Below, piece after piece: positions 46,129 to 61,304 of a stretch of DNA of 64,000 nt. Position 1 is the stretch's first letter. Every line of letters begins with the position of its first letter. The translations under genes were made by a program, and so were the position numbers. A model generated the notes under the pieces. The model saw only the letters and a program-made list of their open reading frames with translations, ran no database searches and was not told the origin of the DNA. The stretch comes from Planctomycetota bacterium (GTDB taxonomy: Bacteria; Planctomycetota; UBA8742; UBA2392): contig JADKGX010000002.1 in NCBI GenBank assembly GCA_016722065.1, positions 57,301-121,300 of the forward strand, in the 5' to 3' direction.

Positions 46129-46147
46129 GCGGTGCCTGGATTGGCCT

Positions 46148-46864
46148 CTAGGTCCTTTTCTTTTTCGCGTCGATACGCGCCCTCATCGCCGCAGCGTGGG
46201 CGGGTGTAACGTACAAGTCCACAAACAACAACTCGACAACGTCGATCGTGTATTCGGCGTCTGCGGCGTCTACATCGATTATGGTTTCTGCTTGGTCGGT
46301 GCTTGGGTGCGCACTCCAGTTACCGATTTCGCGTACATGATGCAGGCTGTCCTGGGTCGGTTTCGTTAGCTCTGGTCGCTTGACGGCTTCCTCGATTTCT
46401 TGAAACAGATCCCGTTTCTTGATAGCCAACTTGATGCGAATCAAGTGCTGGATACAGCGGCGGGCAAGAACCGCTGCGGCCATCGGGGACGATGCCAGAA
46501 CGGCTCGCGCTTGGTCGTAAGCACTCTTGATTTCTGGTTCTACTTCTGGAGGAGCGGCATCTGGCCGAGTGCTTTGAGCGGGCCACAAGAACACGCCCAA
46601 GGGCAGATACGCAGAAAGAGCCAACATGCTAACGCCCACTACCGCGCCGCAACAACTCGCACACTCGGATAGGTGCAACTGTTCCGCAACCCCGTGCGAG
46701 TCTGGCTTCACATTGCGAAAGATCGACCTCTTGGAAGGGTAGCCGTATGTAGCTACCTGAGCGAAGGAACCGTAGGCTCCGCAATGTGGGCAGAGCGCGG
46801 CAGCCCCTGCAAACACGCCTGATTCTTCGAAAACTTGCCGAAGCGGCCTGTGCTTTTTGTTCAT
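46148..46864 (-). CDS. DUF4145 (HEPN-like) protein with N-terminal Zn finger
   Basis: CPHC...CASC; AAAVLARRCIQ...LFQEI...VREIGNWSAH signature. Confidence 0.82.
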   Translation of the reverse strand: MNKKHRPLRQVFEESGVFAGAAALCPHCGAYGSFAQVATYGYPSKRSIFRNVKPDSHGVAEQLHLSECASCCGAVVGVSMLALSAYLPLGVFLWPAQSTRPDAAPPEVEPEIKSAYDQARAVLASSPMAAAVLARRCIQHLIRIKLAIKKRDLFQEIEEAVKRPELTKPTQDSLHHVREIGNWSAHPSTDQAETIIDVDAADAEYTIDVVELLFVDLYVTPAHAAAMRARIDAKKKRT

Positions 46865-46927
46865 AGTGCAAGCAACATATCATCGCCGCATCTGTGCGAG
46901 CAGTTCCCTTTTGGGCTTTTGGTACTG

Positions 46928-47374
46928 TCAAAACGGGATCTCGTCGCTGGTGGTGGCTGGCTCGAACCATGGCACCTGGGCGCCGTCGTCTGACCAGTCT
47001 GGCGCGGCTTCTTCCTGGGTCGGTTCTTCTTCCAGCCCTTTCGTGTTGTCGCGTGGCTGGTAGTGCTTGATCAAGTAGGCTTCGTGATCTAGCGGCTTGT
47101 CCGTTGCATACCACGCAATTTCTACGTCGTCGCGGTGGTAGGCTTCGCGGGGCTCGCCCCGGTCAATCCAATGGCCCATGTGGCGCTTGATCGTCTCGTA
47201 AAGGCGCCCTGTGTGGCTTTCGCCAACATAGAGCATGGCCTTGGTGCGGGCGTTTCGGATGCCGTACACCCCGTCAATCCAAGGCGCCATCTGCTTTGGG
47301 TAGCGCGTGCCTGGCGGGCCTGGGCGAAACCATTCGCCGGGCTTGAACGGGCGCGGGGTTTGAATCTTCTGCAT
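46928..47374 (-). CDS. GIY-YIG-like nuclease with acidic DEIPF tail
   Basis: GVYGIRN...LYVGES...IKRH...E...N pattern; ends TTSDEIPF. Confidence 0.72.
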   Translation of the reverse strand: MQKIQTPRPFKPGEWFRPGPPGTRYPKQMAPWIDGVYGIRNARTKAMLYVGESHTGRLYETIKRHMGHWIDRGEPREAYHRDDVEIAWYATDKPLDHEAYLIKHYQPRDNTKGLEEEPTQEEAAPDWSDDGAQVPWFEPATTSDEIPF

Positions 47375-47463
47375 GGGTTTCTCCGGTGCCTGATTTTTTG
47401 CTCTGCCTGTCGCGGGCCTGCGGTGTATCTTTGCACCTTCAAAGCACTGCCCTGGGGTTCCTT

Positions 47464-48009
47464 ATGACCACTTCTGTCGATGCCTTGATTTGCCCTCACT
47501 GTGCGGCCTCTATCGACGTGCCTGATGGCGTGACGCGCCTCAAGTGCCGGTTCTGCGGTAGCACGCTGGAACTACGCGAAACAGGCAGCGCGCGCGGCCT
47601 GGCGCTGTTGCAAGTGAGCGTTGACAAGATCGCGTCGGGTGTTGACGTGATTGCGCAGCACACGGGCGCGCTGGCCTCGCATACGTTGGGCGCGCGTGAA
47701 CGTTGGAAAGCCGCGTATGATTCCCTGCGTGGCCGGGCGCGCAAACGCATGCTTGCCGCAACGGTCGTGGCGCTCCTGGGCTTCGCGGCGATGTTCGCAA
47801 CGTATGCGTTTCTGACGGCCATAAATGAACTGCCGCCCACGGCGACGGCCACGCAACGGGCGCAAGCGCAACACGACGCGGGGGCCTCGTACCTGTTCGC
47901 CAGCATGTTCGCCACGTTGCCCTTTCTTCTGGCGGCGGGTGTCCTGCAGAAAGGCGCCCAAAACCTGGCAGCGGAAGCCCAAGCCCTGAAACAGCGCGAG
48001 CCGATCTAG
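47464..48009 (+). CDS. Zn-ribbon 2-TM membrane protein
   Basis: CPHC...CRFC, then two hydrophobic helices; opposite strand to the viral operon. Confidence 0.75.
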   Translation: MTTSVDALICPHCAASIDVPDGVTRLKCRFCGSTLELRETGSARGLALLQVSVDKIASGVDVIAQHTGALASHTLGARERWKAAYDSLRGRARKRMLAATVVALLGFAAMFATYAFLTAINELPPTATATQRAQAQHDAGASYLFASMFATLPFLLAAGVLQKGAQNLAAEAQALKQREPI

Positions 48010-48764
48010 CGCGAGACGATCACGGCCACGGCAACCGCGCCAACGGCCAAGGCGACAATCGGCCCCCATGGCATTGATGCCTCAATGCCCTCGCTAATGC
48101 CCTCGCCCACGGCCTTGCCTGTGCGCTTGATCAGATTCTCGGCGCCCTGGGCTACGGCCTCGGCCTGATGGGCAACGTAGTCGTCAACCTCTGACCACTT
48201 CACGGTGAACAGCGGCGCGCCTGGAATGAGGGCAAGCCACGGGTTGCCTTCAACTGCGAAGTCGGCGCCGATCTCGCTGCGCACGGCCTGGGCGTTGCTG
48301 TTGTAGCGGTCTTTGAGGCCGGAAAGCAGCGCGTCGGCCACGCGAACGGCGTGGGCCATCGCTGCGCCTGCGTTGTCGAGTGTGCGGCGCTTGGCGGCGG
48401 TAAACAGCGGCGCGGCGCCTTCCTTGATTGCCTGGGCGATGTTTGCAACGCGGTCGTTGTAGAGGCGCGCGGCGGTGTAGATATCCATAGCCGGGCCGTC
48501 CCACGCCTCTTGCGGGTAGCTGTTCCAGTTCGTCGCCAGCGCAAAGGCTTTGGCCTTGCGGGCTACTTCGTCGGCTTCAAAGAACGCCTGCAAGGTGGCG
48601 TCGTTGGAATAGTCGCCGGGCTTCCAGACCAGACGCGGGATTTCGTCGGCGGTGCCTTGGCTGCCGCGCACGCGCGGGCGGTGCATCTGGCCGGCTGGGG
48701 CGCTGGCGCGTGTGGCCGGCACAAAGCCGAACATGGTGGCGGGGCGTTGGAGTCTGCGGAACAT
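48006..48764 (-). CDS. Putative virion protein with C-terminal membrane anchor
   Basis: Helical body; ends WGPIVALAVGAVAVAVIVSR. Confidence 0.7.
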   Translation of the reverse strand: MFRRLQRPATMFGFVPATRASAPAGQMHRPRVRGSQGTADEIPRLVWKPGDYSNDATLQAFFEADEVARKAKAFALATNWNSYPQEAWDGPAMDIYTAARLYNDRVANIAQAIKEGAAPLFTAAKRRTLDNAGAAMAHAVRVADALLSGLKDRYNSNAQAVRSEIGADFAVEGNPWLALIPGAPLFTVKWSEVDDYVAHQAEAVAQGAENLIKRTGKAVGEGISEGIEASMPWGPIVALAVGAVAVAVIVSR

Positions 48765-48799
48765 GGCGGGCCTTTCGTTGGTGGTGGCCGTGGTGGGGT

Positions 48800-48853
48800 G
48801 GCGACGGGCGCGGGAGCCCCAACGCGGCGCGCCACGCGGGCGCGCCCGTCGCC
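48800..48853. repeat. 13-bp perfect inverted repeat (intergenic hairpin)
   Basis: GGCGACGGGCGCG (48800-48812) / CGCGCCCGTCGCC (48841-48853). Confidence 0.7.
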
Positions 48854-48861
48854 GGGAGTGT

Positions 48862-49353
48862 TCACTTGATCAAGCGCCAAAGCACAAAGGCCAGACCAGC
48901 GCCAATGATGGCGGTGGTGCCGGGGTTGGCCTTGATGGTTTCCATGATGCCGTTGCCCTGGGCCTTGGCGACGGCGTTGGCCACGTCGTCTGCGCGGGCG
49001 TCGGGCACGGCGCCCACGGCGCCCGTGGCGCCTTTGTCGGTCGATGCCGGGCTTGTGGGGCCGGTGGGCTCGGGCAAGCGTTCGGCGGGCTCCTCCACGC
49101 GCTCCACGGGCGCGGCAAGGTTGAGCTGCGCGAACGTGGCAAAGCTGACGTCGTTGCCTGGGTAACTTGTCCAGCGGCCATTTGACGTGCGGCGGAACAT
49201 CGAAACCTCGCGCGGCGGAACGCCGGTGCCTCGATCTGCTGCAAAGGGCTCGCGCAAGTAAGCGACGGTGCCGATGGGATATTCCTTGGGCACGGCGGCG
49301 CCCAAAATGCCGGGCACCTTTGCGGAACCAAAAAAGCCCGTTTCAATGATCAT
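48862..49353 (-). CDS. Putative virion protein with C-terminal membrane anchor
   Basis: Small N-terminal domain, Pro/Ala linker, ends TAIIGAGLAFVLWRLIK. Confidence 0.7.
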   Translation of the reverse strand: MIIETGFFGSAKVPGILGAAVPKEYPIGTVAYLREPFAADRGTGVPPREVSMFRRTSNGRWTSYPGNDVSFATFAQLNLAAPVERVEEPAERLPEPTGPTSPASTDKGATGAVGAVPDARADDVANAVAKAQGNGIMETIKANPGTTAIIGAGLAFVLWRLIK

Positions 49354-49481
49354 GGGGAACCTCGGGAAGTGCCGCCCGCAAGGCAAGGCTTACGGGCGGC
49401 GGGGTGGATTTGTGGCGGGTGGTGTCCTTGGTCGTCCTGGCCTTCGGTTTGCGATCCTGGGGCATTTGTGGCGGTCGTTTT

Positions 49482-49826
49482 TTACTCCCTTGGGCCGGTT
49501 GGCCGGGTTTGCGGCCTGTAGGGCACTTCGGGGAGTTCTTCGCCCTGGTCTTGGTCTTGGTCGTACTCGGCCTGGTCTTGGTCGCTCATGGGGATTGTGC
49601 CGGTGCATCGGTGCGGGTGCGGGCTCAAGGTTTGGCTGATGGCCGGGAGTATCGCGGCGATGCCAGCGGCAAACATGTTTTGCATGGCGGCGGCGCGCTC
49701 GCGGCCTTCCTGCAGAATGCAGTTGTTGCGGTGCCATGCCAGCGCCAGCCGGGCAAAGCCGCCCGCGCTGCTGATCAAGATGGCCGTAATGGCCAGAATC
49801 AAGGCGGCAAAGGGTAGGTCGTTCAT
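49482..49826 (-). CDS. Small membrane protein with acidic tail
   Basis: N-terminal TM (FAALILAITAILISSAGG); CAGGAG RBS. Confidence 0.6.
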   Translation of the reverse strand: MNDLPFAALILAITAILISSAGGFARLALAWHRNNCILQEGRERAAAMQNMFAAGIAAILPAISQTLSPHPHRCTGTIPMSDQDQAEYDQDQDQGEELPEVPYRPQTRPTGPRE

Positions 49827-49877
49827 CGGTGGGGCTCCTGGTGGTGGTCGGGGTTGGTGGTGGTTTGCGTGGCGGTG

Positions 49878-50207
49878 CTACTTGGTGATGGCCTTGAGTA
49901 AGCCGGGAATCAACGTGCCGATCATGCTGGCGCCGCGCGTGACGGCATCTTGCAACGCGGTCGTGAGGGCGCGCGCCGTGGTGATGCTGACGGCGGCCGC
50001 CACGTTCTGTACCTGGGCGGCAAGATCAAGCCGGGCCTGGGCGTCTACCTTGCCTGTGGCCAGTTCGCGCGCGGTGTTGGTGAAAGCGGCGCGCGCCACC
50101 TTGCCCACAAGCGCGCGGTCTTGCTCGCTCCACTTGGCTACCTCGTCGCCAGCGCTGCGCTTGATTGCCTCAAGTATCATGCGGGCAAAATCTCCTGCGG
50201 TCGTCAT
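49878..50207 (-). CDS. Hypothetical helical protein with amphipathic C-terminus
   Basis: GGAG RBS; in operon. Confidence 0.65.
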   Translation of the reverse strand: MTTAGDFARMILEAIKRSAGDEVAKWSEQDRALVGKVARAAFTNTARELATGKVDAQARLDLAAQVQNVAAAVSITTARALTTALQDAVTRGASMIGTLIPGLLKAITK

Positions 50208-50276
50208 TGCAATGGCTCCGGTTGCGGGTTGCGAAAGCCTGCAAGGGGCGCCCGTGGGCGCCCCTTCGGGCGACGG

Positions 50277-50612
50277 TCAAAACGCGAGTCTTACCTTCTC
50301 CACGCCGGTGATGCCTCCGGCCTGCGCGGCCAGCGTGTAGGCCAGCGCCAGCCACAAGCGCTGCGTCTCGCTCTTGGCCTGGCCGGGCGTGAGGCGCTTT
50401 TCCAGTGCGGCCATTTCGCCATGGTGAAAGTTGGTGACGTGGGCGGGCACGCTGCTTGTGGGCGCGCCGTTCAAGCGCTCGGCCAGTTTGCCCAACGTGG
50501 CGATGGCGTCTTGGGCTTCCTCGCCCTGGTGGGGCATCTTGCCGATGCGCTGCATTGCCTCGGCAATCGTGCGGTCGCTCTGGCTGGTCTTGGCTTTGGT
50601 CTTGGCTGCCAT
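50277..50612 (-). CDS. Hypothetical protein
   Basis: AAGGAA RBS; in operon. Confidence 0.6.
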   Translation of the reverse strand: MAAKTKAKTSQSDRTIAEAMQRIGKMPHQGEEAQDAIATLGKLAERLNGAPTSSVPAHVTNFHHGEMAALEKRLTPGQAKSETQRLWLALAYTLAAQAGGITGVEKVRLAF

Positions 50613-50665
50613 GGGTCGGTTTCCTTGCGTTGGTGGTGGTGGTGGTGGTTTGGTTGGTGCCGGGG

Positions 50666-50959
50666 TTACTTGCCCTCGGCCTTTCGCAGCCTCAAGTCCC
50701 ACGTCTTAAGCGTGGTCAAGCCCTGGTCGCGCTGTTCGTCGGTCAAGCTGCTGTCGGCCTCGATGTAGCGGGCCTGGCGCGGCGCCACGGCGTTGTATGT
50801 GGCGCGGTCGGCCTTGACGTACTCGCCCTGCACGGTGCAGCCGCAAAGCAGCGCCAGAAGCGGGCCAAGCACAAGCACAAGCACAAACAGCAACAAGGCG
50901 GCGCGCTCGCGTCGGCGGTCTGTTGGTGGCGGGTTGTCGGTTGTGATCGTCGGGCTCAT
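50666..50959 (-). CDS. Small lipoprotein (o-spanin-like candidate)
   Basis: RRRER + hydrophobic stretch + LLCGC lipobox; short helical mature part. Confidence 0.7.
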   Translation of the reverse strand: MSPTITTDNPPPTDRRRERAALLLFVLVLVLGPLLALLCGCTVQGEYVKADRATYNAVAPRQARYIEADSSLTDEQRDQGLTTLKTWDLRLRKAEGK

Positions 50960-50998
50960 CGGTGGGGCTCCTGTGTGGGTTGCTCGCGGGCTCGCGGG

Positions 50999-51310
50999 CT
51001 AGTTGTCGGTGGGCCTGGCCTTGGTGTTCTCGCGGATTGCGGCGGCAAGCTCCGCGATGTTGGCGCCGCCCTGGGCCATGGCGGCGGTGTGGGCGGTCTG
51101 CGCAACGGCCTGGGCCTCGGCGGCGGTCGCGGCGCGCTCTGCGATGGCAAGCGCGCGGTCGCGGTGCGTGAGTAGCTTGTCAATCAATGGCTGCACGTTC
51201 TCGCGCCACGCGGCTTTGACCACGCGCGAAAGCAAGCCGCCAATGATCAGCAAGGCAGCCGGAAGCGGCGCGTTGCTCAAGAGCGTGGCCAGTGCGGTTG
51301 TTTCGTCCAT
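50999..51310 (-). CDS. Single-TM coiled-coil protein (holin- or i-spanin-like candidate)
   Basis: N-terminal TM (LPAALLIIGGLL) followed by an Ala-rich coiled coil; directly upstream of the lipoprotein. Confidence 0.6.
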   Translation of the reverse strand: MDETTALATLLSNAPLPAALLIIGGLLSRVVKAAWRENVQPLIDKLLTHRDRALAIAERAATAAEAQAVAQTAHTAAMAQGGANIAELAAAIRENTKARPTDN

Positions 51311-51323
51311 GGTGCGGGCTCCG

Positions 51324-52205
51324 TTAGATGCCGTAGTAAGTTTTCAAGTCGTCAACCAACGTGGCATAGTTGGCATAGAGGCCATCGCTTAGGCTTCGCA
51401 GGCAATATCAAGATCGGCCTCGCCCAAGCCCAAGGCGCCCGCGTCGGGTGTCCAGTCGGCATTTTCTGCGACGGTCACAAAGGCGCCGCCGTCGATTGCG
51501 AGTTTCAATTTCTTCTCGCCTGCGGTGTTGTCAAAGCGCACATGCAGAACATGGGCGCCCACGTTGAACGCGGTATTTATCGCGGTCTGCGCGTAGCCTG
51601 TGAGGAAGCCGTAAGCGCGGGCGCCGGTGGTGTATTGGCGCACCACAAAGGGCCGGTTGGAGCCCAAGGCGCATATGCTCAAGTTGTCGTCGGCGGAAAC
51701 GCGGCGCACCACAATAAAGTAGTCGTAACTCTTGGCCGTGATCATGGCGGCGGCGGTGGTGTTCGTCGCCATCCCATGACTAAAGCCCTTTAATGGCTTC
51801 GATGTAGAGCGTGGGCTTGCCGTTAATTGCGTGGTCGCCGTCGCCCTTGCCGTGCTTGTAGTTGTTATTTCCGTTGCTCTGGTATGCCCACAATGCGCCC
51901 TCTGCGGGCGCGCGGCGTTTGATCACCTCGCCTTCGGTGCCTGCTGCGGGTGTGGTGCCCGCAACGTCGGTAAACAGTTTGGCCAAGTCCTCTTGGTAAA
52001 CCCAAGTAAGGCCGGTGCCTGCCAGCGGGTGCGACGGGCCAGCCGGGGGCGCGGGCGCGATGCTGGCGGCCACGCTGGCGGCCAAGCTGACGGCGCTGGC
52101 GACGGTGACGGAAAACAGCGCCGCGCCGCCCAATGCGCCGCCGCCCGCGTAGCCTATGGCGCGCGTGCGGGGCGGTTCGATCACGGGCAAGAACATCGCG
52201 GGCAT
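51324..52205 (-). CDS. Putative spike / receptor-binding protein (LamG-like beta-sandwich), split by two apparent frameshifts
   Basis: Three segments in different frames join into one protein ending ...LVDDLKTYYGI*; breaks at 51782-51784 and about 51395. Confidence 0.55.
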
Positions 52206-52212
52206 GTTTTCC

Positions 52213-52659
52213 CTAGCAGTTGCAAGTTGCGTCGGCGCTGACCATTTCGCGCACTTCGATGCTGACGGTTGCGTCTTTGCGGGTGCTTCCGTCCACGGCG
52301 GAAAGCGCCACAAGATCAAGCGTGAGGCTCTTGATGCCTGCGGGCGCGGCTTCCACCTTGCTGCCCTCGGCGCTGATAAAGAGGCCGCGGCCTGCGGCCA
52401 ATTCGTTCAACGCTTCGTCGGGCGTGAAAGGTGAATTCACGGCCACGAACACAAGCGCGTCGTCGTCGCCGGTGATCGTGGGCCACTGTTGCAACGTGAT
52501 CGCCCACGCCTTTGTTTCGGGGCCGCGCGGCAAGTCGATCTGCACGCGGTGGCTGGTGTCGGCGCTGCTGACCAGCTCGCGCGATGCCCACGGGCGGGCG
52601 CGGCCTGGCACCAAAGGGCGCAAGGCTTCGGCTATCGTTTTGCAATCGCAATCTTTCAT
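52213..52659 (-). CDS. Beta-rich 148-aa protein (penton / single jelly-roll candidate)
   Basis: Alternating hydrophobic beta patterns (RVQIDL, WAITLQ, LVFVAV, LTLDLV, VSIEVRE); lies between the capsid candidates and the spike. Confidence 0.55.
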   Translation of the reverse strand: MKDCDCKTIAEALRPLVPGRARPWASRELVSSADTSHRVQIDLPRGPETKAWAITLQQWPTITGDDDALVFVAVNSPFTPDEALNELAAGRGLFISAEGSKVEAAPAGIKSLTLDLVALSAVDGSTRKDATVSIEVREMVSADATCNC

Positions 52660-52686
52660 GGCCGGGTTTCCTTGGTCTGCCTGGGC

Positions 52687-52713
52687 CGGGCGCGCCGCGC
52701 GACGGCGCGCCCG
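52687..52713. repeat. GC-rich hairpin 3' of the 367-aa gene
   Basis: CGGGCGCGCCG-cgcga-CGGCGCGCCCG. Confidence 0.65.
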
Positions 52714-52748
52714 ATGGCTCACCCCGTCGCGCGGGGCCGGGGTGGGGG

Positions 52749-53852
52749 TTACACCCCGTTGGCGGCACCTTGGAATTCGTCCTGGGCGCTGCGGCCTTCA
52801 AAGATGCTGACAAGCCGCAACGTGCGCGCGGCGGCGGGCGTGGTGGCGTTGATCTTCACAAAGGCCGATTCGTCGCGGTGCATGTCCACCTGGCCGAAAG
52901 CCCAGTCAAGCCCGGTGTGGCCGATGGCGTGACGGGCCGGAACGGGGTCGGTCGGGTGGGCCTGGCTTTGCGTGGCCAGTTCGGTCGTGAGCGCCAAGAA
53001 TTCACTCTCAAGGCTGATGCTGTTGGCATCGTGCAACAAGCCGCGCACGCGCAAGCGGCGCAAAAGCTTGCCGTGCTGCGCGGCGGGCGTTTGCTCGATG
53101 CGGCTTTGGAAAGCGGCGCTGTAGGCCGTGGCGTTGCCAAAGAACACGGTTTCACCTTCGCCGTTCTTGAGGCGCGTCCAAAGGGCTTCGGCCTGCTGGC
53201 CTGCGGCGCCTTCGCTTGGAAACTCCACGCAATGCAGAATCACGCGGCTAATGCGGGCGCTTGCGCCGGTCAAGTCCTGCAACGTCATTGTGACCAGTTC
53301 TTGCGGGTTGATGGCGATGGCGCCCACGCGGCGCCCGTCTGCCAGTTCCAACACGGTGCCGGGGAAGTAAACGCCGGGGTGTTGGCCTTGAATTGCCAGC
53401 GTGGCGACGGCGCTCAAGAGCGCTGTATTCAAGGTGCGCTGCAAGGCCAGTTGCGTCGTGAGTTCCTTGAAATTGTTGTTGAGCGTGGTTTGGTTGAACG
53501 CGGCGCCCACGTCGTCAACGGTGGCGTCAGCCGTGCCGACTGCGTGAGTAAGCGCGGTGGTGTTGGTCGCGGCGGGAATCGTCGCGGCCAATGAACCGCC
53601 ACTGAGTTCGTCAAACAGCGGCATGGGCGTGGGGGCAATCAAGCCCAAGGGGAAGCCGTCGCCCTGGGCGTAGTTGCGGCCTGCCACCTTGAAACTTGTA
53701 ATCAAGTTTTGCAGCGCGTGGCGCGGGTGCGTGGCGACGTAGGAAACGCCGATAATGGCGGCGCGGCATCGCGGCTTGCGCGAAAACACCACGGGCGCAA
53801 GGCCGCCCGTGTATGTGGTTTGGTCGCTGATTAGATCAAAAGGCTTGAGCAT
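52749..53852 (-). CDS. Candidate double jelly-roll capsid protein (367 aa) with head-fibre-like insert
   Basis: Two beta-rich halves of about 130 aa; helical insert ADATVDDVGAAFNQTTLNNNFKELTTQL in the first half; GGAG RBS. Confidence 0.55.
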   Translation of the reverse strand: MLKPFDLISDQTTYTGGLAPVVFSRKPRCRAAIIGVSYVATHPRHALQNLITSFKVAGRNYAQGDGFPLGLIAPTPMPLFDELSGGSLAATIPAATNTTALTHAVGTADATVDDVGAAFNQTTLNNNFKELTTQLALQRTLNTALLSAVATLAIQGQHPGVYFPGTVLELADGRRVGAIAINPQELVTMTLQDLTGASARISRVILHCVEFPSEGAAGQQAEALWTRLKNGEGETVFFGNATAYSAAFQSRIEQTPAAQHGKLLRRLRVRGLLHDANSISLESEFLALTTELATQSQAHPTDPVPARHAIGHTGLDWAFGQVDMHRDESAFVKINATTPAAARTLRLVSIFEGRSAQDEFQGAANGV

Positions 53853-53891
53853 GGCGGCGGTCTCCGTGGGTGGTCGTTTGGTTGGCCGGGT

Positions 53892-53937
53892 GGCTTGAGT
53901 TGGCGCCCTTGATTGGGCAAGGGCGCCGCTTCAAGCC
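53892..53937. repeat. Long hairpin directly 3' of the 210-aa gene
   Basis: GGCTTGA/TCAAGCC outer stem and GGCGCCCTTG/CAAGGGCGCC inner stem. Confidence 0.72.
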
Positions 53938-53944
53938 GTCAAGA

Positions 53945-54577
53945 TCAACCCTTCACGGCGTCTGCAACTTCGATGTAGCCGGTCACGCTGATGACGCCTG
54001 AGAAAGCCTCGGCAAGCGTCACGCCGGTGATGCCGTCAAACAGCACCTTGAACACTTCGCCGGGGTTGAGGATGTCCAGCGGGTTGACGTGTTCCTGGCC
54101 ATCGGGGCGCTTGCACTGGTTGAAGTGCACAAGCGAACCGGCAAAGCCGTCGTCGTCGGCGGCGGCGCCCTGGTGGGTGCCTTCAAAGCCCAACGCGTAC
54201 GCGCGGGCGGCGTTGATCACGCTGGCGGCGTTGGCGCGCTTCAGTTCCGCCGTCAAGAGGCGCATGATCTGGTGGGCCGTGCCTTCGGGAACGCGGGTGC
54301 CAGCGGCGTCAAACACCAGAATCAAATTGCCGATGTTGCGCCAGCGGTCGCTGCCGTTGGTGAAGTTCATCGTGCCAGCCAAGCCAAGCGTGGTGGCGCT
54401 GAGGGCAACGGCGGCATCGCACTTGATGAAGTTGCGCTCAAAGCGCTTGGCGCTGCTGAAATACTCGTCCATCTTGAATTTGCCGCCCGCGAAAGCGAAA
54501 GCGACGGCGCCAAAGTCGCGCAAGCGGTTCTGCTGCAACTCCTGCGCGGCTTCTTCGATCTGTTTCAGGGTAAGCAT
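53945..54577 (-). CDS. Candidate major/minor capsid protein (210 aa, single jelly-roll-like)
   Basis: Beta-rich; GGAG RBS with unstructured ACC-rich leader; strong 3' hairpin. Confidence 0.5.
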   Translation of the reverse strand: MLTLKQIEEAAQELQQNRLRDFGAVAFAFAGGKFKMDEYFSSAKRFERNFIKCDAAVALSATTLGLAGTMNFTNGSDRWRNIGNLILVFDAAGTRVPEGTAHQIMRLLTAELKRANAASVINAARAYALGFEGTHQGAAADDDGFAGSLVHFNQCKRPDGQEHVNPLDILNPGEVFKVLFDGITGVTLAEAFSGVISVTGYIEVADAVKG

Positions 54578-54634
54578 CTGGTGGTCTCCGGTGTTGGTGG
54601 TGGTCTGGTTGGTGTTCACCCCGCGCGGGGTTTG

Positions 54635-54955
54635 TTACTTGAAAAGCGAACTTCCAAGGCTGCCGATGAAGCCCTTGCCGGTGTCCAGCGCAAAATCAAG
54701 CAGCCGGTCGCCGATGGGCTTGTCCAGCGCCTTGAGTTCGGCCTTGCGTACCTCGGCGGCAAGCTCGGCCTGGCGTTCGCGTGACTGCGCCTCGGCAAGC
54801 CGCGCCTGGGCGTCTGCGGTCAAGGCTGCTGCGCCGCTATCGGGCGGAAGCAATGCCTCGTTTGTGGCGGGTTTCTTGCTGACGTAGAGCAAGCCGCCCA
54901 CAACTACTGCGGCGGCAAGTCCTCCGATGGCAAGTGTTGCTCCGTTGATCTTCAT
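54635..54955 (-). CDS. N-anchored virion membrane protein
   Basis: MKINGATLAIGGLAAAVVVGGLLYVSKK TM, coiled coil, amphipathic C-terminus. Confidence 0.72.
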   Translation of the reverse strand: MKINGATLAIGGLAAAVVVGGLLYVSKKPATNEALLPPDSGAAALTADAQARLAEAQSRERQAELAAEVRKAELKALDKPIGDRLLDFALDTGKGFIGSLGSSLFK

Positions 54956-55005
54956 GGCCGGGCGTCCTTGTGTGGTCTGTTCTTGGGTTGGCGTTTCCCT
55001 TGAAA

Positions 55006-55482
55006 TCAGTTCACAAGATCGCGCACGCGGCCATTTTGCGGGCGGTCGTTGGCGACGGTGCGCGAAATGCCCTTGCTGCCTTCGACGGTGGGCTCGGTGG
55101 TGGCCTTGGCGGGCTTCACCTTCTCGGCAATCCACGCGGCCAGTTCCTTGATTGCGGGGGCCGCGCGGCCTGCGACGGCCAAGGCGGTGCCGCCCAAGAT
55201 CGCGGCGGCAAACTTCTTGGTCGCCTTGATCTTGCTGGCGCCAAAGGCCACGGCGATGCCAGCGCCAGCGGCGATGGCGCTGGTGATCACCTGGCGCTTG
55301 GTGGTCTCGGTCGCGGCGGGCTCGCCCATCGCGGCGTTGGCCACTTCGGCGGCGACGGTTGACAAGCCTGCGCCGGTCAAGGTTGCGGCGCCCTGTTTGA
55401 CGGCGGGCACAAGCGCCAGCGCGCGATTGCCGCCGTTGCTGCTTTTGCCGGGCGGCTTGCGGGTTCCTTTGTTTCCTGCCAT
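55006..55482 (-). CDS. Multi-TM virion membrane protein
   Basis: Basic N-terminus plus two to three Gly/Ala-rich hydrophobic helices; CAGGAG RBS. Confidence 0.7.
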   Translation of the reverse strand: MAGNKGTRKPPGKSSNGGNRALALVPAVKQGAATLTGAGLSTVAAEVANAAMGEPAATETTKRQVITSAIAAGAGIAVAFGASKIKATKKFAAAILGGTALAVAGRAAPAIKELAAWIAEKVKPAKATTEPTVEGSKGISRTVANDRPQNGRVRDLVN

Positions 55483-55543
55483 GGCTCTTACTCCTGGTTG
55501 GTGGTGGTCTGCCTGGTGTGTGTTGCTGGTGTGCGTGGCCGGA

Positions 55544-55909
55544 TTAGCCCACGGTCTTGCGCAGCCGATCACGCGCGGCGTTTAGCGCCGTGCGTTCTTC
55601 GTCTGTGAGTCCTTTGACAAAGCCGGAAGCGTGGGCAAGTTTGCCGTCGCTGCAAAACTGCGAGTCGGCAAGCTGCTTGATAATCCGCAAGCCCTGGGCC
55701 TCTTTCTGCGTGAGGGTGGGGCGGGCGGGTTGCGGTGTGGCCTTGCGCGTGGCCTTGCGGGCCGGTTTGCGCGGCGTGGCCTTGCGCTTGGCCTTGGGGG
55801 CCGGTTTGCGCGGCGTGGCCTTGCGCGTGGCCTTGCGGGCGGGCTTGCGCGCGGCGGGCTTGCGCTTGGCCTTGGGGGCCGGTTTGCGGTTGGTTGTCTT
55901 TTTGCTCAT
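55544..55909 (-). CDS. Histone-H1-like basic DNA-condensing protein
   Basis: Repeats of RKPAPKAKRK / RKPARKATRKATP over the first 60 aa. Confidence 0.72.
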   Translation of the reverse strand: MSKKTTNRKPAPKAKRKPAARKPARKATRKATPRKPAPKAKRKATPRKPARKATRKATPQPARPTLTQKEAQGLRIIKQLADSQFCSDGKLAHASGFVKGLTDEERTALNAARDRLRKTVG

Positions 55910-57450
55910 CTGCCTTTGCCTCCTGTAAGTGCCAAGCCGATCACAACTGCCGCGCCTGCCGCACAAGCCGCCCAAATCCAGCCGGGCGGGCCGGTGCTTT
56001 GCGGCGGGCCTGGGCCGGTGGGCTCGGGTGCTTCGGGCGGTAGCAGCGCCACTTGCGCGGCTTCGGTGGTCTGTTTGCTGACGGCGATTTCGGATTCCAG
56101 CGCCGCGATTTCGGCCTTGATCGTGTCCACCTTGGTTTGTTCGGTCGCGGCCTGGGCTAGTGCGCGCTCGCGGGCTTCCTGCACCTGGCGTGCATCGCGG
56201 CGGTCTTGGATTGCGCGGTGAATCGCGGTGCCAGCGGCCACGGAAGCGGCGCCAAGGGCGGCGGCGGCGATGTTGTAGGGCACGGGCAAGAATGGCGCCG
56301 CCACAAGTAGCGCGCGGCCTGCGGCGGTGAACGTCTGCGCGCCAGCCTCGGCCACGGCGGTTTCATCAAAGGCGGAAACGCTGCCATCAATGAACACGGC
56401 GCCAAGCTGGTTGAGGATTTCGGCCTGGGCGAAAAAGCCAAGCGGCTTCAAGAGAAAAGTCGCCAGCCACGGCGCGGTTTTCTCGGTGCGCAAGATGTTT
56501 TCGGCCAATGCTTGCGCGCCCTTGCCTATTTCCTCGATCACGTTTCGCACAAACTTAAGCGGGTGGGTAAACAGCCGCTTGAGGCTGTCGCCAATGCCGT
56601 TGGAACCGGTCACGCTGCCGATCATTACGGGCGGCGTGGTGATCGCGCTGCCTGCAAGGCCGGTGGCGATGGCCTCGCGCGCGGCGATGTTGTCCAGCGC
56701 CACGGGCGCGGCTTGGTGCAAGGCTAGCGCGTCGTCTATGGCGGTGCCCTGGGCCGTGAAGATTTGCGCCATGCGGGCCGCGACCACGGCGGCAAGCTGT
56801 ACGTCGGTTGCGGTGGGGTTGCCCTCGTTGGCCAGCGCGAAGGCGCGCAAGGCGGCGCGGCGCTGCGTGAAGCCTTCGCCGGGCTCGATCATGGAACCGG
56901 CCCAACGTGAGGCCAGCGCAATATTGAGGCTGCCCAAATCGCGCGGTTGCGCCAGCGGCGCCAGTGTGGCGGCGCGCACAAGCACGCCAGCGGGTCGAAA
57001 GCCCTGGTCAACGTAGGCCAGCCGGAACGCGATAAAATGCAGCATCGCGGCGCGGGTTTCGTTGTAGGTGCCAGCGGAAAGCGCTTTTTCGACGGCGGCG
57101 CGCGCGGGCGCGCCCTTGGCGCGTCCGATCATGGCAAGAAACACGTTGGTTTGTTCTTCGCTCAAGGCGCGGAGTAGATCGCCCCACGTTCTGATGGTCG
57201 GGTTGTCGGGCGCGGGCGCGGCCTGCATCTGCGCAAGCGGCAAGGCTGCGAGTAGCGCGGCCTTGGTGACTGAGCCGGTAAAGCCTGACTCAAGCGCCGA
57301 TTGGCGCGGGCCTGTGCCGCCGCCCGCGTCCTTGTCGCCAATGCGGCGCCAGTAGGCTTCGCGGATTGCGGCGGGCACAAGCTGCCATGCGCGCCAGTCC
57401 ATTACGGCGGGCGCGGTGGCGGGCAAGCTGTATTCGGCGGCAAGGCTCAC
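55906..57450 (-). CDS. Large Ala-rich virion protein (about 514 aa) with internal hydrophobic hairpin and C-terminal TM
   Basis: GTG start overlapping the upstream stop, GGAGG RBS; ends WIWAACAAGAAVVIGLALTGGKGR. Confidence 0.7.
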   Translation of the reverse strand: MSLAAEYSLPATAPAVMDWRAWQLVPAAIREAYWRRIGDKDAGGGTGPRQSALESGFTGSVTKAALLAALPLAQMQAAPAPDNPTIRTWGDLLRALSEEQTNVFLAMIGRAKGAPARAAVEKALSAGTYNETRAAMLHFIAFRLAYVDQGFRPAGVLVRAATLAPLAQPRDLGSLNIALASRWAGSMIEPGEGFTQRRAALRAFALANEGNPTATDVQLAAVVAARMAQIFTAQGTAIDDALALHQAAPVALDNIAAREAIATGLAGSAITTPPVMIGSVTGSNGIGDSLKRLFTHPLKFVRNVIEEIGKGAQALAENILRTEKTAPWLATFLLKPLGFFAQAEILNQLGAVFIDGSVSAFDETAVAEAGAQTFTAAGRALLVAAPFLPVPYNIAAAALGAASVAAGTAIHRAIQDRRDARQVQEARERALAQAATEQTKVDTIKAEIAALESEIAVSKQTTEAAQVALLPPEAPEPTGPGPPQSTGPPGWIWAACAAGAAVVIGLALTGGKGR

Positions 57451-57941
57451 GCAAGCCTCCAATGCTGGCGGCGCGGATAGTGCGGCATATCGGCGCGTGT
57501 GTTGAACGGGTGGCCGGTCTGGTCTGCCTTCGGGTCGGAAAGCCACATCTTGCCGCCTGCGAAAAACTCAACGGCGGCGTGGCGGTACGGGTCGGCCTCG
57601 TCGCCAGCCGTGACCAGATAGACGCGGGCAAAGCCAAGCACGCGCAAGCCTGCCATGATCACGGCGGCCCACTGGTCGCAATCTCCGCCGTGGGCGATGG
57701 TCTCCGATACTTCCTGAATCGGGTCGCACTCGTCGCGGTCGCTCTGGCGGTAGATGCCTGCGCGGGCGGCGTCGTGTAAGGCTTCGGCGGTGGTGGCGTT
57801 GTTGGCGTGCATCCAAGCCACAAGCGCGCGGCGCTGGTCAAGATCGCGGGCGCCACGCTGCGCAGCCGCCAAAATCGCCGGGATAGTTTCGACCGGGTAG
57901 CGGCGGCGCTTGTCTGCTTGGCTGGTGTAGCAGAATTCCAC
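57447..57941 (-). CDS. Transglutaminase-like (Cys-His-Asp) protein
   Basis: GGDCDQWAAVIMAGL...YRHAAVE...WLSDP triad pattern. Confidence 0.8.
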   Translation of the reverse strand: MEFCYTSQADKRRRYPVETIPAILAAAQRGARDLDQRRALVAWMHANNATTAEALHDAARAGIYRQSDRDECDPIQEVSETIAHGGDCDQWAAVIMAGLRVLGFARVYLVTAGDEADPYRHAAVEFFAGGKMWLSDPKADQTGHPFNTRADMPHYPRRQHWRLA

Positions 57942-57946
57942 GGTGA

Positions 57947-58297
57947 CTACTCCACGGGCTTCGGTGCGGGCTTTGCGGTCTCTTGACTGGTCAAGTCTGC
58001 TTTGATCTCGCCTTGCGCCTGGTGAATCATGCGCACTACCTCGGCGCGCAACTTGGGCGCGCTGGCCAGTGCGGTACGGTGCGCGATGCGTTTCAGCGGC
58101 GGCAACGTAGCAAGGCCGGTCTCGATGATGTGCGACGGCGGCGCGCCCACAAGCGCGCGCTTGGCCTGGGCGGAAAGCCCGTGCATGGCGGCGCGTGCAA
58201 GCTGTTCGTCGCTTTCCCAAAGCGCCAGCGCCTTGCCCAACAAGCGGGCGTCGGCGGGCGGCAAGGGAATCGGGCGCGGCTTGGGGACGCTGCTCAT
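57947..58297 (-). CDS. Hypothetical protein
   Basis: ATGA overlap with the upstream gene, GGAGG RBS. Confidence 0.6.
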   Translation of the reverse strand: MSSVPKPRPIPLPPADARLLGKALALWESDEQLARAAMHGLSAQAKRALVGAPPSHIIETGLATLPPLKRIAHRTALASAPKLRAEVVRMIHQAQGEIKADLTSQETAKPAPKPVE

Positions 58298-59202
58298 TCT
58301 GCGCCCTCCACGTCGGAAACTTCGGCGGTCGTGTCCACGGTTTTTACGCCGGTCATCTTCTCGCGGGCGTATTCAAAAATGGCCTGGATGTTTTCTTCGC
58401 TGGCGATGTTGTCCATGAAGCGCGCCAGCGCGCCGGGCTTGTCCTCGCGCACGTCCTCGGCGGCCTCGATCAACGGCGCGAGTTCGGCCTTCATGCGGGC
58501 GCCCAAGCTGGTCAACTTGCGCACCTCGCCAATTACCTTGCTGATTTGCTCCATGGGGTCTACGGGCTTGCGGGCGCGCTCGATCACGTCAAGCACAAGC
58601 TCGCGGCCTAGCATGTCCATGGGCGACGGCGCGGCCTGGCGCTGTTCCAGCCGTTCCAGCGCGCGGCGCATTTCCGCAAGCTCGGGGTTGGGCGCGGCGT
58701 GGTCGGGCGCGGCCTGGGCCTGGGCGGCGTCGGGCTCGATCATCAAAGCAAAGTGGGCCTCGTGCTTGCCGTCCTGGTCACTCCACGCCACGGTTCCTGC
58801 AACGTGGCCAGCGCCAGCGCGGCGCCGCATTGTTGCAATGGCATCGGGCGCCAGATGCGCCAGCGGGCACGCGATTTCCCGGCCTTGATCGGCGGTAAAC
58901 TTCACGGTGGCGGCGCGGTGGGGGACGGCCTGCAATTCGTCGGCGGTAAAGGCGCCGCCGTCAATCAAGCCCTGCAAGTAGCGCGGGATGGGCGCGGTTG
59001 AGCCGGTGCCGCGCCCGTTTTCCGCGTGGGCCTCTGCGCGCCGAACGGTGGGGCCGCGCGTGGGTGGCTCGGGGCGCGGTTCGGCGGGCATCGGCGGGAA
59101 GTCGTCGTCTAGCTCGTCGTCGGCGGGGTTGCCGCCCATGCGGTCGGAAAACAGCGCGGTGTTTGCCGTGTTGAGCGTGGGCTCTGTGCTGTCCGGTTGC
59201 AT
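58294..59202 (-). CDS. Hypothetical protein (acidic/Pro N-terminus, helical C-terminus); first gene of the putative late operon
   Basis: About 302-aa ORF coupled to the downstream gene. Confidence 0.65.
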   Translation of the reverse strand: MQPDSTEPTLNTANTALFSDRMGGNPADDELDDDFPPMPAEPRPEPPTRGPTVRRAEAHAENGRGTGSTAPIPRYLQGLIDGGAFTADELQAVPHRAATVKFTADQGREIACPLAHLAPDAIATMRRRAGAGHVAGTVAWSDQDGKHEAHFALMIEPDAAQAQAAPDHAAPNPELAEMRRALERLEQRQAAPSPMDMLGRELVLDVIERARKPVDPMEQISKVIGEVRKLTSLGARMKAELAPLIEAAEDVREDKPGALARFMDNIASEENIQAIFEYAREKMTGVKTVDTTAEVSDVEGAE

Positions 59203-60664
59203 GGGCGGCGCCTCGCGGGTTGTGGCTGCTGCCACAAGCTCAAGCCACCATCGTAAACGGTGCACCCACGCTGCTCGCGGCCGGGCAACAATCTTGGATC
59301 CAGGCGCGGGGCCTGATGGCCACGGTTTCCTAGCCGCGGGTCGTGGTACTTTCGGGCGATGGCCTCAAGCTGCGCCAGCGTGGCGCACGTTGGGGCCGGT
59401 GCGTAACTTTCGCGCCACGCCGGGCGGCCTGCTTTGAGCCAGTCTTGGGCGTCCATCTGCAAGCGCAAAGGCCAGCGCCCGCGCCGGGCCTCGTCAATCG
59501 CGGCATCCTGAAACGGCGCCAGCCGCGCGGCAAACGCGTCGGCCATCGCTTCACGGTCTGCGCGGGCCTGGTCTCGCGCGGAATCCTGCGCCTGATGCAA
59601 CTGCCTGCGGTTCGCAAGTGTTGACTCGTCAAGGGCGCGGCCTTGTGGCTGTTGGTCGTTGCCGTTGGCTGGTAGCTGCATGGCCTGGCGCAAGGCGGCG
59701 CGGCGCTGTTGGTCTTGGTGCCAGCGGTCTACCGTGATTGCGCCCTCGGGCAACGTGAGACGTTCGCCGCGTTGGAAACGGCGCACCATATCGCGCAAGA
59801 ATCCCCAACATTCGTTGGCCTGCTGTTGCGGTTTGCGAGTTTCTCCAGCGCCATCGTGAGCGCAGCGGGCGTGGCGCTGGCGCCGATCTGTGCAAAGTCG
59901 CGCATATCGGCGGGCGTTAGCAGGCAGACCACGCGGGCGAAAGCTGCAAGGGCGTCGGGGCTCCCTTCTGCTGCTGCTTTATCTTGCTTCTGCATATCTG
60001 CTTTTAGGCGGTCGTCGGATGGGCTTGCTGGTGCGGTTCCTGGGCGTTGGTTGGTGGTGTATACCACCTGGTTTGGTGGTATATGCGCGGGTGGGGTGGT
60101 GGTGTGCACCACCAACTCTGGTGGTGTAGACCACCTATCTTGGTGGTGTATACCACCAACTTTGGCGTCGGTTTCTGCGTCGGTTTCTGCCTGGATTTCG
60201 TCGCCCTGGTCGGCCTGGGTTTCGGTGTTATCCACACTCTTGATGGGCGCGTTTCCGGTGTTCGTTTCTCGCCAGTATGGCCGGGCATCGCATAGCGATT
60301 TGAGATTGCTGACGGCCTGGGCGCCGTCGTGAAACACAAGCGCGCCGGTGCGGTCTTTCCATGCGCCATAGTCTGTGTTGAGGATGTAGCGGGCTTTGCT
60401 GGTCTCGATCAAGATGCCACGCCAGACCAGCCGCTTAAGTGCGCGGTAGCAGTCGCCACGGGCGCTGCGTTGGCTGTTGAGCCACGGGCCGGTGGCCACG
60501 TTGATCAGCGCAGATTTCTGCCATTGCTGCGGCGTGCCGTACATGTAAGCGATTGCCGACAACATCAAGCCGGATTCGGCCTGGCTCAAGTCCATTTGCG
60601 CCAGCGCAAAAAGCAAGTCGTGGCATGGCGTGGCGAAGGGCTTGGCGCGTAGTTTGTAGCTCAC
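59109..60664 (-). CDS. Lambda-O-like replication initiator; apparent -1 frameshift at 59803-59806; C-terminal end uncertain
   Basis: N-terminus LLFALAQMDLSQAE...AYMYG...ALKRLVWRGIL...LNTDYGAW resembles the Phage_rep_O winged helix; one more G gives NVGGFLRDMVRRF and joins ORF 59109-59798. Confidence 0.72.
60053..60157. repeat. Iteron array (putative origin) inside the rep gene
   Basis: GGTGG-N6-CCACC at 60053, 60098, 60120 and 60142, plus a half-site at 60075; spacing 22/23/22/22 bp. Confidence 0.85.
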
Positions 60665-60975
60665 TTGGCGGGCTCCTGCTTGGGCGCTGTGCGCCAGTAG
60701 ATTGCGTGTAAGGCCAGATACAACGCGGCCATGGGGCCGTGATTGATTGCGGCCTCTGTCATTGCGTGGCCTAGCTTGGCGGGGTTGCGGGCGGCCTGGG
60801 CGGCCTGGGCCAGCGCGCGCAAGATGGTTTCGCTGCTGGCCAAGCATTGCACGGGGCCGCGCGCCATCTCCCACGCTTCGACGGTCTCTGTCTGCACTCC
60901 GATCACGCGCGCCAGCACAAGGGTTGAAAGCCCAAGGTCGGCGCGCGTTTTCCAGACAAGATCGGGCGTGATCAT
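60661..60975 (-). CDS. XRE-type HTH transcriptional regulator
   Basis: TRADLGLSTLVLARVIGVQTETVEAWE. Confidence 0.8.
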   Translation of the reverse strand: MITPDLVWKTRADLGLSTLVLARVIGVQTETVEAWEMARGPVQCLASSETILRALAQAAQAARNPAKLGHAMTEAAINHGPMAALYLALHAIYWRTAPKQEPAK

Positions 60976-61304
60976 TGCTCGGCCTCGTCGCCATCCCACG
61001 GGCCTGATGCGGGGCTTATGGCCATGCGGCGGGCGGCCTGTAGGTCTGCGCGGGTGTCCAGCGGGTTTGCTTTGTTGCTGCGCAGCGCTGGCGGGATGGA
61101 GGCATCGCGCACGCGGGCGCGCGCAAGCATGGCAAGCAATGCCTTGGGCGTTTGCTCAATGCCCGTGGCGCGGCTGGTTTCCATCAAGATACCGGCCACG
61201 CTTCGCCCGTCTCGCCATAGCTCGATGGCAAGGGCGCGGGCGTCGGCGCGGGCTTCTGTGATGCGGCGGCGCAAGCTGCGCGCAATGGTGGTGGGGGCAT
61301 TCAT
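60972..61304 (-). CDS. Putative DNA-binding protein
   Basis: AIELWRDGRSVAGI helix pattern; translationally coupled on both sides. Confidence 0.55.
   Translation of the reverse strand: MNAPTTIARSLRRRITEARADARALAIELWRDGRSVAGILMETSRATGIEQTPKALLAMLARARVRDASIPPALRSNKANPLDTRADLQAARRMAISPASGPWDGDEAEQ

Follow-up and report, generated by a model that had tools for sequence, protein, structure and literature searches.

A predicted double jelly-roll capsid module in an ATPase-less integrated element of a Planctomycetota bacterium

Described double jelly-roll phages and the integrated element

Double jelly-roll (DJR) capsid proteins define one major realm of viruses. Its bacterial members are few and have mostly been recognised by sequence. 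A packaging ATPase accompanies almost all DJR viruses with dsDNA genomes, and its absence is atypical. Metagenomic contigs of the FLiP group, which reach up to 17 kb and are presumed to be ssDNA, also lack this ATPase.

Several described systems come close. The Finnlakeviridae-type phages, namely FLiP, phiCjT23 and the phiCjT23-like prophages of Flavobacterium, are temperate and insert at dif without an integrase, through XerC/XerD; genomes of the FLiP/phiCjT23 type are circular ssDNA of 6-9 kb with a rolling-circle Rep, and the virions contain lipid (PMC9719478). The Odin group of Yutin et al. (2018), from marine sediment, has genomes of 7-11 kb and, like the FLiP group, no packaging ATPase, and its major capsid proteins (MCPs) match STIV and PM2 by HHpred with E-values of 1e-26 to 1e-36 (PMC5894146 and its supplement). 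The dif-type DJR prophages of Vibrio are PM2-like corticoviruses, IMEX elements without an integrase (PMC12715192).

We analysed a window of 64,000 nucleotides (the whole stretch of DNA, to which all positions below refer) from an uncultured Planctomycetota bacterium, whose 62% GC genome is a metagenome-assembled genome (MAG) of 6 contigs. An earlier note on this DNA had proposed that three consecutive genes encode a divergent jelly-roll capsid set. These genes lie within an integrated element (45117..62154) whose repeat-to-repeat length is 17,019 bp. Copies of a 19-bp direct repeat, CTACGTCCGATAATCGATC, bound it on either side, at 45117-45135 and 62136-62154 (2 matches against 0 expected by chance). 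The site is empty in two congeners (G001 and G002), where the flanks are 134 bp apart. The same repeat core flanks a related element in locus L001, and the two ends of another relative of ~17 kb (L002) are joined. A 28-mer, ACGTCCGATAA-TCGATC-TTATGTTCGGT (62138..62165, plus strand), which we take to resemble E. coli dif, is regenerated at the right junction. This dif-like sequence is single-copy in 12 of the 16 host-family genomes, and control sequences gave 0 matches.

No integrase or recombinase was matched among the element proteins in Pfam or PHROG. The element is an integrase-less insertion in a dif-like site, as described for Finnlakeviridae and the phiCjT23-like prophages. Since it sits at such a site, integration would presumably be carried out by the host recombinases XerC and XerD. 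The Vibrio dif-type prophages are likewise tailless DJR proviruses at dif, of comparable size and with many small membrane proteins, but their P2-type MCP and P9 packaging ATPase can be recognised by sequence, and neither was found in our element.

Predicted folds of the three capsid-module proteins

The three ORFs proved to be real genes, all on the minus strand: 53945-54577 (210 aa, ATG start), 52749-53852 (367 aa) and 52213-52659 (148 aa). Their GC3 values (0.78-0.83) are typical of coding sequence in a genome of 62% GC. The trio was found in unchanged order in 11 of 11 related loci examined, which rules out chance ORFs, and the 210-, 367- and 148-aa proteins share 36%, 45% and 32% identity, respectively, with the L001 relative. 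The gene order given in the earlier note was borne out, with two small proteins bearing predicted transmembrane (TM) helices upstream of the 210-aa gene and a variable gene downstream of the 148-aa gene. Comparison of the three families with each other by hhalign detected no mutual relationship.

The 367-aa protein (P0002, 52749..53852) gave a confident AlphaFold2 model (pLDDT 85.1, pTM 0.79), in which 45% of the residues outside an insert are in strands according to DSSP. The two beta-rich halves read from the sequence earlier are present in the model: strands at residues 3-64 and 164-210 form the first, strands at 234-354 form the second, and a helix (215-229) lies between them. When this model was searched with Foldseek against the PDB, PBCV-1 capsid chains (E 2.7e-5, probability 1.0) and PM2 P2 (TM 0.50 on target) were matched, together with the cellular GH172 DJR-like proteins 8ah3 and 8ic8. 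The search against BFVD returned the STIV1 coat protein, a pithovirus MCP and ASFV B646L (p72). All of these matches are full-length, with probabilities of 0.87-1.0; the TM-scores are modest (0.33-0.44 on query, up to 0.50-0.59 on target) and the E-values only 1e-4 to 1e-6, and, like all fold evidence given here, they come from predicted models. The fold check proposed with the original claim, by AlphaFold and Foldseek, thus returned the DJR capsid proteins of PBCV-1, PM2 and STIV. The main claim, a divergent DJR capsid protein of 367 aa, is upheld by the confident model and these matches, and we predict that the protein is a DJR major capsid protein with two rolls in one chain.

The top 50 Foldseek matches of the 367-aa model in the PDB library and BFVD included no HK97-fold capsid protein, and we rejected an HK97 fold for it on these results. 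Portal, terminase and tail families had no Pfam or PHROG match in the element either, so that it lacks the features of an HK97 tailed phage. A few uncharacterised tailed-phage proteins were present among the top 50 BFVD matches.

The earlier note had also offered a pair of small and large single jelly-roll MCPs, as in Thermus phage P23-77. In such a P23-77/HCIV/sphaerolipovirus-like capsid, the 210-aa protein and one other would be the two single jelly-roll proteins and the 148-aa protein the penton, an arrangement with which the constant company of the 210- and 367-aa proteins agrees. It is excluded on the fold of the 367-aa protein, since this single chain holds both rolls and aligns with DJR MCPs from end to end. 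Furthermore, the element lacks the packaging ATPase that viruses of the P23-77 type possess; on both counts it departs from the sphaerolipovirus type (P23-77, IN93). We regard this arrangement as highly improbable and keep to a DJR protein of 367 aa.

The first jelly roll of this protein is interrupted by a variable insert (residues ~79-160, 53373..53618, minus strand). A long helix is predicted at residues 121-156, and pLDDT is low to moderate in the insert. The insert is missing from the relatives P0009 and P0010 and is longer in P0008. Its motif recurs, with 60-89% identity, in PF09956 (DUF2190) proteins and at the C-terminus of a pectate-lyase-fold protein, and is common to the capsid protein and to decoration or fibre proteins of tailed phages. 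The ~80-residue insert with its helical module probably projects from each capsomer. A helical module held both by a DJR capsid protein and by tailed-phage decoration and fibre proteins would be a concrete case of exchange between virus realms.

The 148-aa protein (P0003, 52213..52659) was modelled with similar quality (pLDDT 87.5, pTM 0.78) as a single jelly roll of 8-9 strands with one helix; 43% of its residues are in strands by DSSP. Foldseek matched the model to PDB coat proteins of FMDV (VP2), parechovirus, BYDV, CCMV and CMV, with E-values from 2.5e-4 and probability 1.0, and nearly all of the top 20 PDB matches are viral jelly-roll coat proteins. No known penton protein of a DJR virus was among its top 50 matches. 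The gene adjoins the variable spike-slot gene in all loci, and the family keeps an N-terminal CxC motif and a C-terminal Cys. AlphaFold2 and Foldseek thus support a single jelly roll for this protein, which would fit a penton, as judged from fold and gene position only; we consider the protein a candidate penton or vertex base.

The 210-aa protein (P0001, 53945..54577) is a conserved partner encoded immediately upstream of the capsid gene, and the related loci all have a homologue of it ahead of the MCP gene. It has no match in Pfam, PHROG or the PDB. A crude alignment-based predictor, calibrated on the 367- and 148-aa proteins (Q3 0.62-0.71), placed ~25% of the residues in strands and ~21% in helices, with a long N-terminal helix (residues 4-28) ahead of a mixed alpha/beta region. 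The description of all three proteins as beta-rich therefore holds for the 367- and 148-aa proteins, on DSSP of the AlphaFold2 models, but was not confirmed for the 210-aa protein, for which this crude estimate lends the jelly-roll call no clear support. A role as a minor capsid protein or in assembly is the most likely one for it.

Sequence-level isolation and the missing packaging ATPase

None of the three proteins had a sequence match in Pfam, PHROG or the PDB, and profiles of the three families found nothing among PDB sequences. At E<0.04, 0 of 42 members of the 367-aa family matched a PHROG. A tblastn search with the 367-aa protein against 50,697 phage records (INPHARED) gave no match, and pattern scans with the capsid alignment recovered no relatives in GTDB species genomes or IMG/VR. 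Within a set of 1.84 billion representatives, the capsid family makes up no more than 44 clusters, and the cluster look-up provided no name beyond 'hypothetical protein'. This MCP family is thus invisible to Pfam, PHROGs, PDB profiles, IMG/VR scans and phage GenBank, and was detected by structure prediction only.

No packaging ATPase was matched among the element proteins by Pfam or PHROG. The Walker A pattern [GA]xxxxGK[ST] is absent from all six frames of 45000-62300, and none is conserved in the relatives. As the element has no packaging motor of its own, the capsid must be filled without one.

These properties set the element apart from each described group. In common with the Finnlakeviridae-type phages it has a (here predicted) DJR MCP without sequence likeness to others, no packaging ATPase and a location at dif without an integrase. 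It differs from them in its size of 17,019 bp, in host phylum, and in its initiator, which here and in most relatives is of the winged-helix kind, has iterons and lacks an HUH motif. Sequence and profile searches of phage records and PDB chains did not link the 367-aa family to Finnlakeviridae. With the Odin group it shares the missing ATPase, a conserved uncharacterised gene just before the MCP gene and a predicted single jelly-roll minor protein. In contrast to the Odin MCPs, the 367-aa family profile finds nothing among PDB sequences, and its hhalign comparison with an Odin representative from that paper's supplement gave a probability of 0.14% and no alignment. The predicted DJR MCP, the single jelly-roll vertex-type protein, the variable spike gene and the membrane proteins recall the PRD1/PM2/STIV module (Tectiliviricetes), but the element has no FtsK/HerA-type ATPase and no sequence-level kinship with that module, and its MCP carries an inserted helical module. 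Measured against DJR viruses as a whole (Bamfordvirae), a two-roll MCP was found on prediction, and neither an FtsK/HerA ATPase nor membership of a described MCP family was found.

The same negative results could be read as signs of a non-viral integrative element, such as a plasmid-like IMEX, whose jelly rolls would be cellular carbohydrate-binding or enzymatic beta-sandwiches (GH172/DUF2961-like proteins or adhesins). The element has no packaging ATPase, portal or terminase, no member of the capsid family occurs in IMG/VR or INPHARED, and GH172 DJR-like proteins (8ah3, 8ic8) are among the PDB matches. However, the best-scoring and most numerous full-length matches of the 367-aa model are capsid proteins, and the gene next door encodes a viral-type single jelly roll, followed by a variable gene of receptor-binding type. 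Many small membrane proteins and a ~17 kb form with joined ends also fit a virus. The nearly invariant columns of the 367-aa family alignment are mostly Gly, Arg and Leu, and polar residues of catalytic type are not conserved, which also speaks against this reading. We therefore consider a non-viral origin improbable.

Our results suggest instead, with good confidence, that these three genes make up the core virion module of a tailless, icosahedral and temperate phage residing in a Planctomycetota chromosome. The predicted DJR of the 367-aa protein, together with the single jelly roll of the 148-aa protein, points to a previously unannotated lineage of tailless phages, and we interpret the element as a temperate DJR phage that lacks a packaging ATPase and belongs to a new lineage, orphan at the sequence level. 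Its host belongs to an uncultured lineage of Planctomycetota, a phylum with almost no known phages.

Neighbouring genes and a possible virion assembly

The variable gene downstream of the 148-aa gene is the spike-slot gene (51327..52205, minus strand). It was located by tblastn of L013 proteins on the element and is homologous to an intact 293-aa gene of that locus. Its three frame pieces imply two frameshifts, near 51790 and 51395. In relatives this slot holds proteins with He_PIG or Collar domains. The downstream "spike" of the earlier note is thus in place as a variable gene but is broken in this copy.

Just upstream of the 210-aa gene, two small proteins with one predicted TM helix each (Kyte-Doolittle scan) occupy 54635..55482 on the minus strand, one at 55006-55482 and the other at about 54635-54946. 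Each has a conserved counterpart in L013 (60-68% identity). In total, at least 8 small late-region proteins have one predicted TM helix (a hydrophobic 19-mer above KD 1.6). A further gene (55544..55909, minus strand) encodes a 121-aa protein of Lys/Arg/Pro/Ala repeats with a pI of 11.9, a candidate for condensing DNA; 39-nt tandem repeats lie within the gene at 55693-55887, and the protein is conserved in L013.

The replication-initiator-like gene (59307..60664, minus strand) contains four palindromic iterons (60051-60165) and is split over two frames near 59804, whereas it is intact in L013 and L001. The initiator family has a winged-helix N-terminus and internal iterons, no HUH or Tyr motif is conserved in its alignment, and the match to Phage_rep_O is weak and sub-threshold (E 0.094). 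The relative L011 differs in having Rep_1 and an SSB.

Compared with L013, the rep gene of this copy therefore has one frameshift and its spike-slot gene two, three in all, so that the copy may be defective or the assembly may carry indel errors. The latter is plausible since the genome is a 6-contig MAG. If the copy is a decayed remnant, the trio no longer makes particles in this genome; an NCBI copy of the capsid gene that is 97% identical and truncated at 316 aa agrees with such decay. Against this, neither the trio nor any other late gene is interrupted and their GC3 is high, and close relatives are intact and have joined ends. We consider decay rather unlikely. The question bears on the activity of this copy, not on the identity of the genes.

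In the virion of the proposed phage, the 367-aa protein would assemble as trimers into capsomers of pseudo-hexameric shape. The 148-aa protein would occupy the twelve vertices as pentamers that bear a spike for host recognition, encoded by the variable gene downstream. The numerous small single-pass membrane proteins encoded around the capsid genes suggest that a lipid membrane may lie inside the capsid, as it does in PM2 and PRD1. Condensation of the DNA by the Lys-rich protein would be one possible way to fill the capsid without a motor.

A broader proposal, which we make tentatively and hold at somewhat less than an even chance, is that the elements of 13-18 kb represent a new lineage, at family rank or higher, of DJR phages that infect Planctomycetota and contain a membrane. 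Their genomes would replicate as double-stranded circles with a lambda-O-like initiator, and the shell and membrane would co-assemble, motor-free, round DNA condensed by the histone-like Lys-rich protein. A trimeric fibre module exchanged with tailed phages would be built into the capsomers. If this is true, they would be the largest ATPase-less dsDNA DJR viruses known. The ATPase-less condition, so far known from the 6-11-kb FLiP/Odin-type genomes and from the FLiP-group contigs, here reaches 17 kb, in a genome whose initiator is of the theta type, which makes the question of capsid filling directly testable.

As to the remaining genes, a GIY-YIG-like identity for another conserved 148-aa protein (46928-47374) was our own impression; it had no Pfam support and we do not claim it. 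Transglut_core (E 0.004), Phage_rep_O (E 0.09) and HTH_31 were sub-threshold among the Pfam and PHROG matches of the element proteins, and the one solid match was DUF4145, in a cargo gene.

The predicted capsid gene and its neighbours

The three proteins are encoded on the minus strand of a 17-kb integrated provirus (hereafter the element) by ORFs for 210 aa (P0001, 53945-54577), 367 aa (P0002, 52749-53852) and 148 aa (P0003, 52213-52659). Spurious ORFs are abundant because the genome has a GC content of about 62%, and the GC3 of these three ORFs was 0.78-0.83, which is the signature of true genes. The trio was kept together in every related locus examined, and the identity to the relative in locus L001 was 36% for P0001, 45% for P0002 and 32% for P0003. 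Upstream are genes for two small proteins, both predicted to have transmembrane helices, and downstream is a variable gene, consistent with the order proposed in the earlier note (membrane proteins before the trio, a spike after it). Similar 35-nt CA-rich leaders were seen at 49838-49872, 53851-53885, 54578-54612 and 55482-55516 (minus strand: ...ACCACCACCAAC...GGAGAC...), directly upstream of four late genes including those of P0001 and P0002, and may be a translation-initiation or regulatory signal common to the four.

P0002 had no match in Pfam, PHROG, PDB sequences (by profile) or phage GenBank records. A word-indexed search gave six full-length relatives, and when 1.84 billion cluster representatives were searched with a profile, only 44 clusters were found at E<1e-3, mostly of 300-330 aa. 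The AlphaFold2 model built on a 42-sequence alignment (pLDDT 85.1, pTM 0.79) contains two sets of strands, one at residues 3-64 plus 164-210 and the other at 234-354, on either side of a helix at 215-229. Its best Foldseek matches in the PDB were three PBCV-1 capsid chains of 8h2i (E 2.7e-5, probability 1.0, about 450 aligned columns), a structure whose outer shell comprises the MCP together with five variants of it, all of them two-jelly-roll proteins (PMC9617893). STIV turret proteins were found at ranks 3 and 9 (partial, about 190-200 columns), PM2 P2 at rank 32 (E 0.033, TM 0.50 on target) and cellular GH172 DJR proteins at ranks 35 and 41. The top Foldseek matches in BFVD included chlorovirus, klosneuvirus and pithovirus capsid proteins, ASFV B646L, the STIV1 coat protein (E 2.4e-4) and a 256-aa protein (TM 0.59 on target). 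The TM-scores on the query were modest (0.33-0.44), in part because an insert makes up 22% of it. The model thus suggested, with good but not absolute confidence, that P0002 has a double jelly-roll (DJR) fold, and its matches to viral DJR capsid proteins support the main call of the earlier note, a divergent DJR capsid protein.

The insert of P0002 (residues ~79-160; 53373-53618, minus strand) is missing in the homologues P0009 and P0010 and longer in P0008. It contains the motif ALTHAVGTADATVDDVGGAFNQTTLNNNFKELT and then a predicted 36-residue helix. DUF2190/PF09956 proteins and the C-terminal end of a protein with the pectate-lyase fold share this motif at 60-89% identity. We take these PF09956 proteins to be head-decoration proteins; one source labelled them 'phage recombinase'. 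Since DJR capsomers are trimers, it can reasonably be inferred that the insert helix would form a three-helix projection on each P0002 capsomer.

For P0003, a 12-sequence alignment was gathered from the neighbours of capsid homologues, and the AlphaFold2 model (pLDDT 87.5, pTM 0.78) showed eight to nine strands and one helix. The top Foldseek matches in the PDB were classical viral jelly rolls (FMDV VP2, parechovirus, barley yellow dwarf virus, CCMV and CMV; E from 2.5e-4, probability 1.0), and therefore the modelled fold is a single jelly roll. Pentons of known DJR viruses were not among its best 50 PDB matches. P0003 is a candidate penton solely from its fold, its size and its constant place after the capsid gene and before the spike slot. 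Its family alignment shows a CxC near the N-terminus and a Cys at the C-terminus.

Homologues of P0001 (210-247 aa) stand directly before the capsid gene in all related loci, and no family match, PDB link or profile-profile link was found for this protein. A Chou-Fasman estimate on its alignment, calibrated against the two AF2 models above (Q3 0.62 and 0.71), gave an N-terminal helix at residues 4-28, then mixed helix and strand. In the Odin group, a conserved uncharacterised gene likewise precedes the MCP gene (PMC5894146).

Integration site and host

The element measures 17,019 bp and is delimited by two copies of a 19-bp repeat (45117-45135 and 62136-62154). The right junction, ACGTCCGATAA-TCGATC-TTATGTTCGGT, has the dif-type arm-spacer-arm layout, and we take its XerD-arm core to resemble that of E. 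coli dif. The dif-like 28-mer was single-copy in 12 of the 16 host-family genomes, with no control matches. No recombinase was found among the element proteins by Pfam and PHROG scans. The element has inserted at a dif-like site without an integrase of its own, and in two congeners the site is empty, with contiguous flanks 134 bp apart. When both junctions (45117-45146 and 62136-62165) were compared, the host-type dif was rebuilt at the right one; the left one kept the XerC arm and spacer and differed in the outer arm, AGTTGCGCGGT.

The host gene that flanks the element is also next to the relatives in L001, L013, G018 and G011; of these, L001 and G011 are the only ones in which the att core or the dif-like 28-mer at this locus was confirmed. 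In locus L002, one 19-bp core (9525-9543) connects both ends of an L001-type element on a contig of 16,913 bp, some 190 bp more than the element itself, which points to either a circle or an IMEX array in tandem. The host PurD was 91% and 88% identical to those of two Planctomycetota MAGs, and the host is an uncultured Planctomycetota lineage.

Replication module and comparison with known phages

The early region encodes an HTH protein and an initiator. Four palindromic TTGGTGGTGTATACCACC-like iterons (60051-60165, 22-45 bp spacing) lie within the initiator gene, as in lambda O/ori, and no HUH motif was found in the initiator. In a 17.9-kb relative (L011), an SSB and a Rep_1 (pC194-type rolling-circle) initiator (1446-3182) replace the iteron-type one; replication modules have therefore been swapped within this phage group.

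No Walker A motif was found in any frame of the element, and none was conserved in relatives. Tailless DJR proviruses at dif are already known in Vibrio (PMC12715192); they carry an ATPase, whereas none was found in the element. FLiP and phiCjT23 (PMC9719478) share dif use and the lack of an ATPase with the element, but are ssDNA DJR phages. The Odin group also consists of ATPase-less DJR phages (PMC5894146). No sequence link from our capsid family to the FLiP/phiCjT23, Odin or Vibrio types was found with phage records, PDB profile, PHROG or hhalign. The present lineage joins known traits (dif, the predicted DJR, no ATPase) and differs from the known types in four ways: its 17-kb genome, its sequence-orphan capsid family, its new host phylum and, apparently, a theta-type initiator.

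Other genes and frame changes

Other products of the late region are an acidic protein of 323 aa, a 546-aa protein in which two segments are hydrophobic, and many predicted single-pass membrane proteins. A Lys/Arg/Pro/Ala-rich protein of 121 aa (55544-55909, pI 11.9, with 39-nt tandem repeats at 55693-55887) is conserved in relatives and may serve to condense DNA in this element, which has no recognisable packaging ATPase. A transglutaminase-like protein of 170 aa (57447-57962) gave sub-threshold matches to Transglut_core (E 0.004) and DUF553 (E 0.014). It has a GDCDQ...H...D pattern, is among the best-conserved element proteins (52-70% identity), and could be a peptidase, a lysin or a maturation enzyme.

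Compared with L013, whose genes are intact, the initiator gene of the element is frameshifted once (~59804) and the spike-slot gene twice (~51790 and ~51395). P0005, an NCBI copy with 97% identity to the capsid gene, is truncated. These changes are due to either decay or assembly indel errors. Adjoining the left junction (45313-46864) are genes for a 271-aa protein without matches and a 238-aa DUF4145 protein (E 4.5e-15). Their counterparts are absent from L001 and L013, and they are probably cargo, possibly defence-related.
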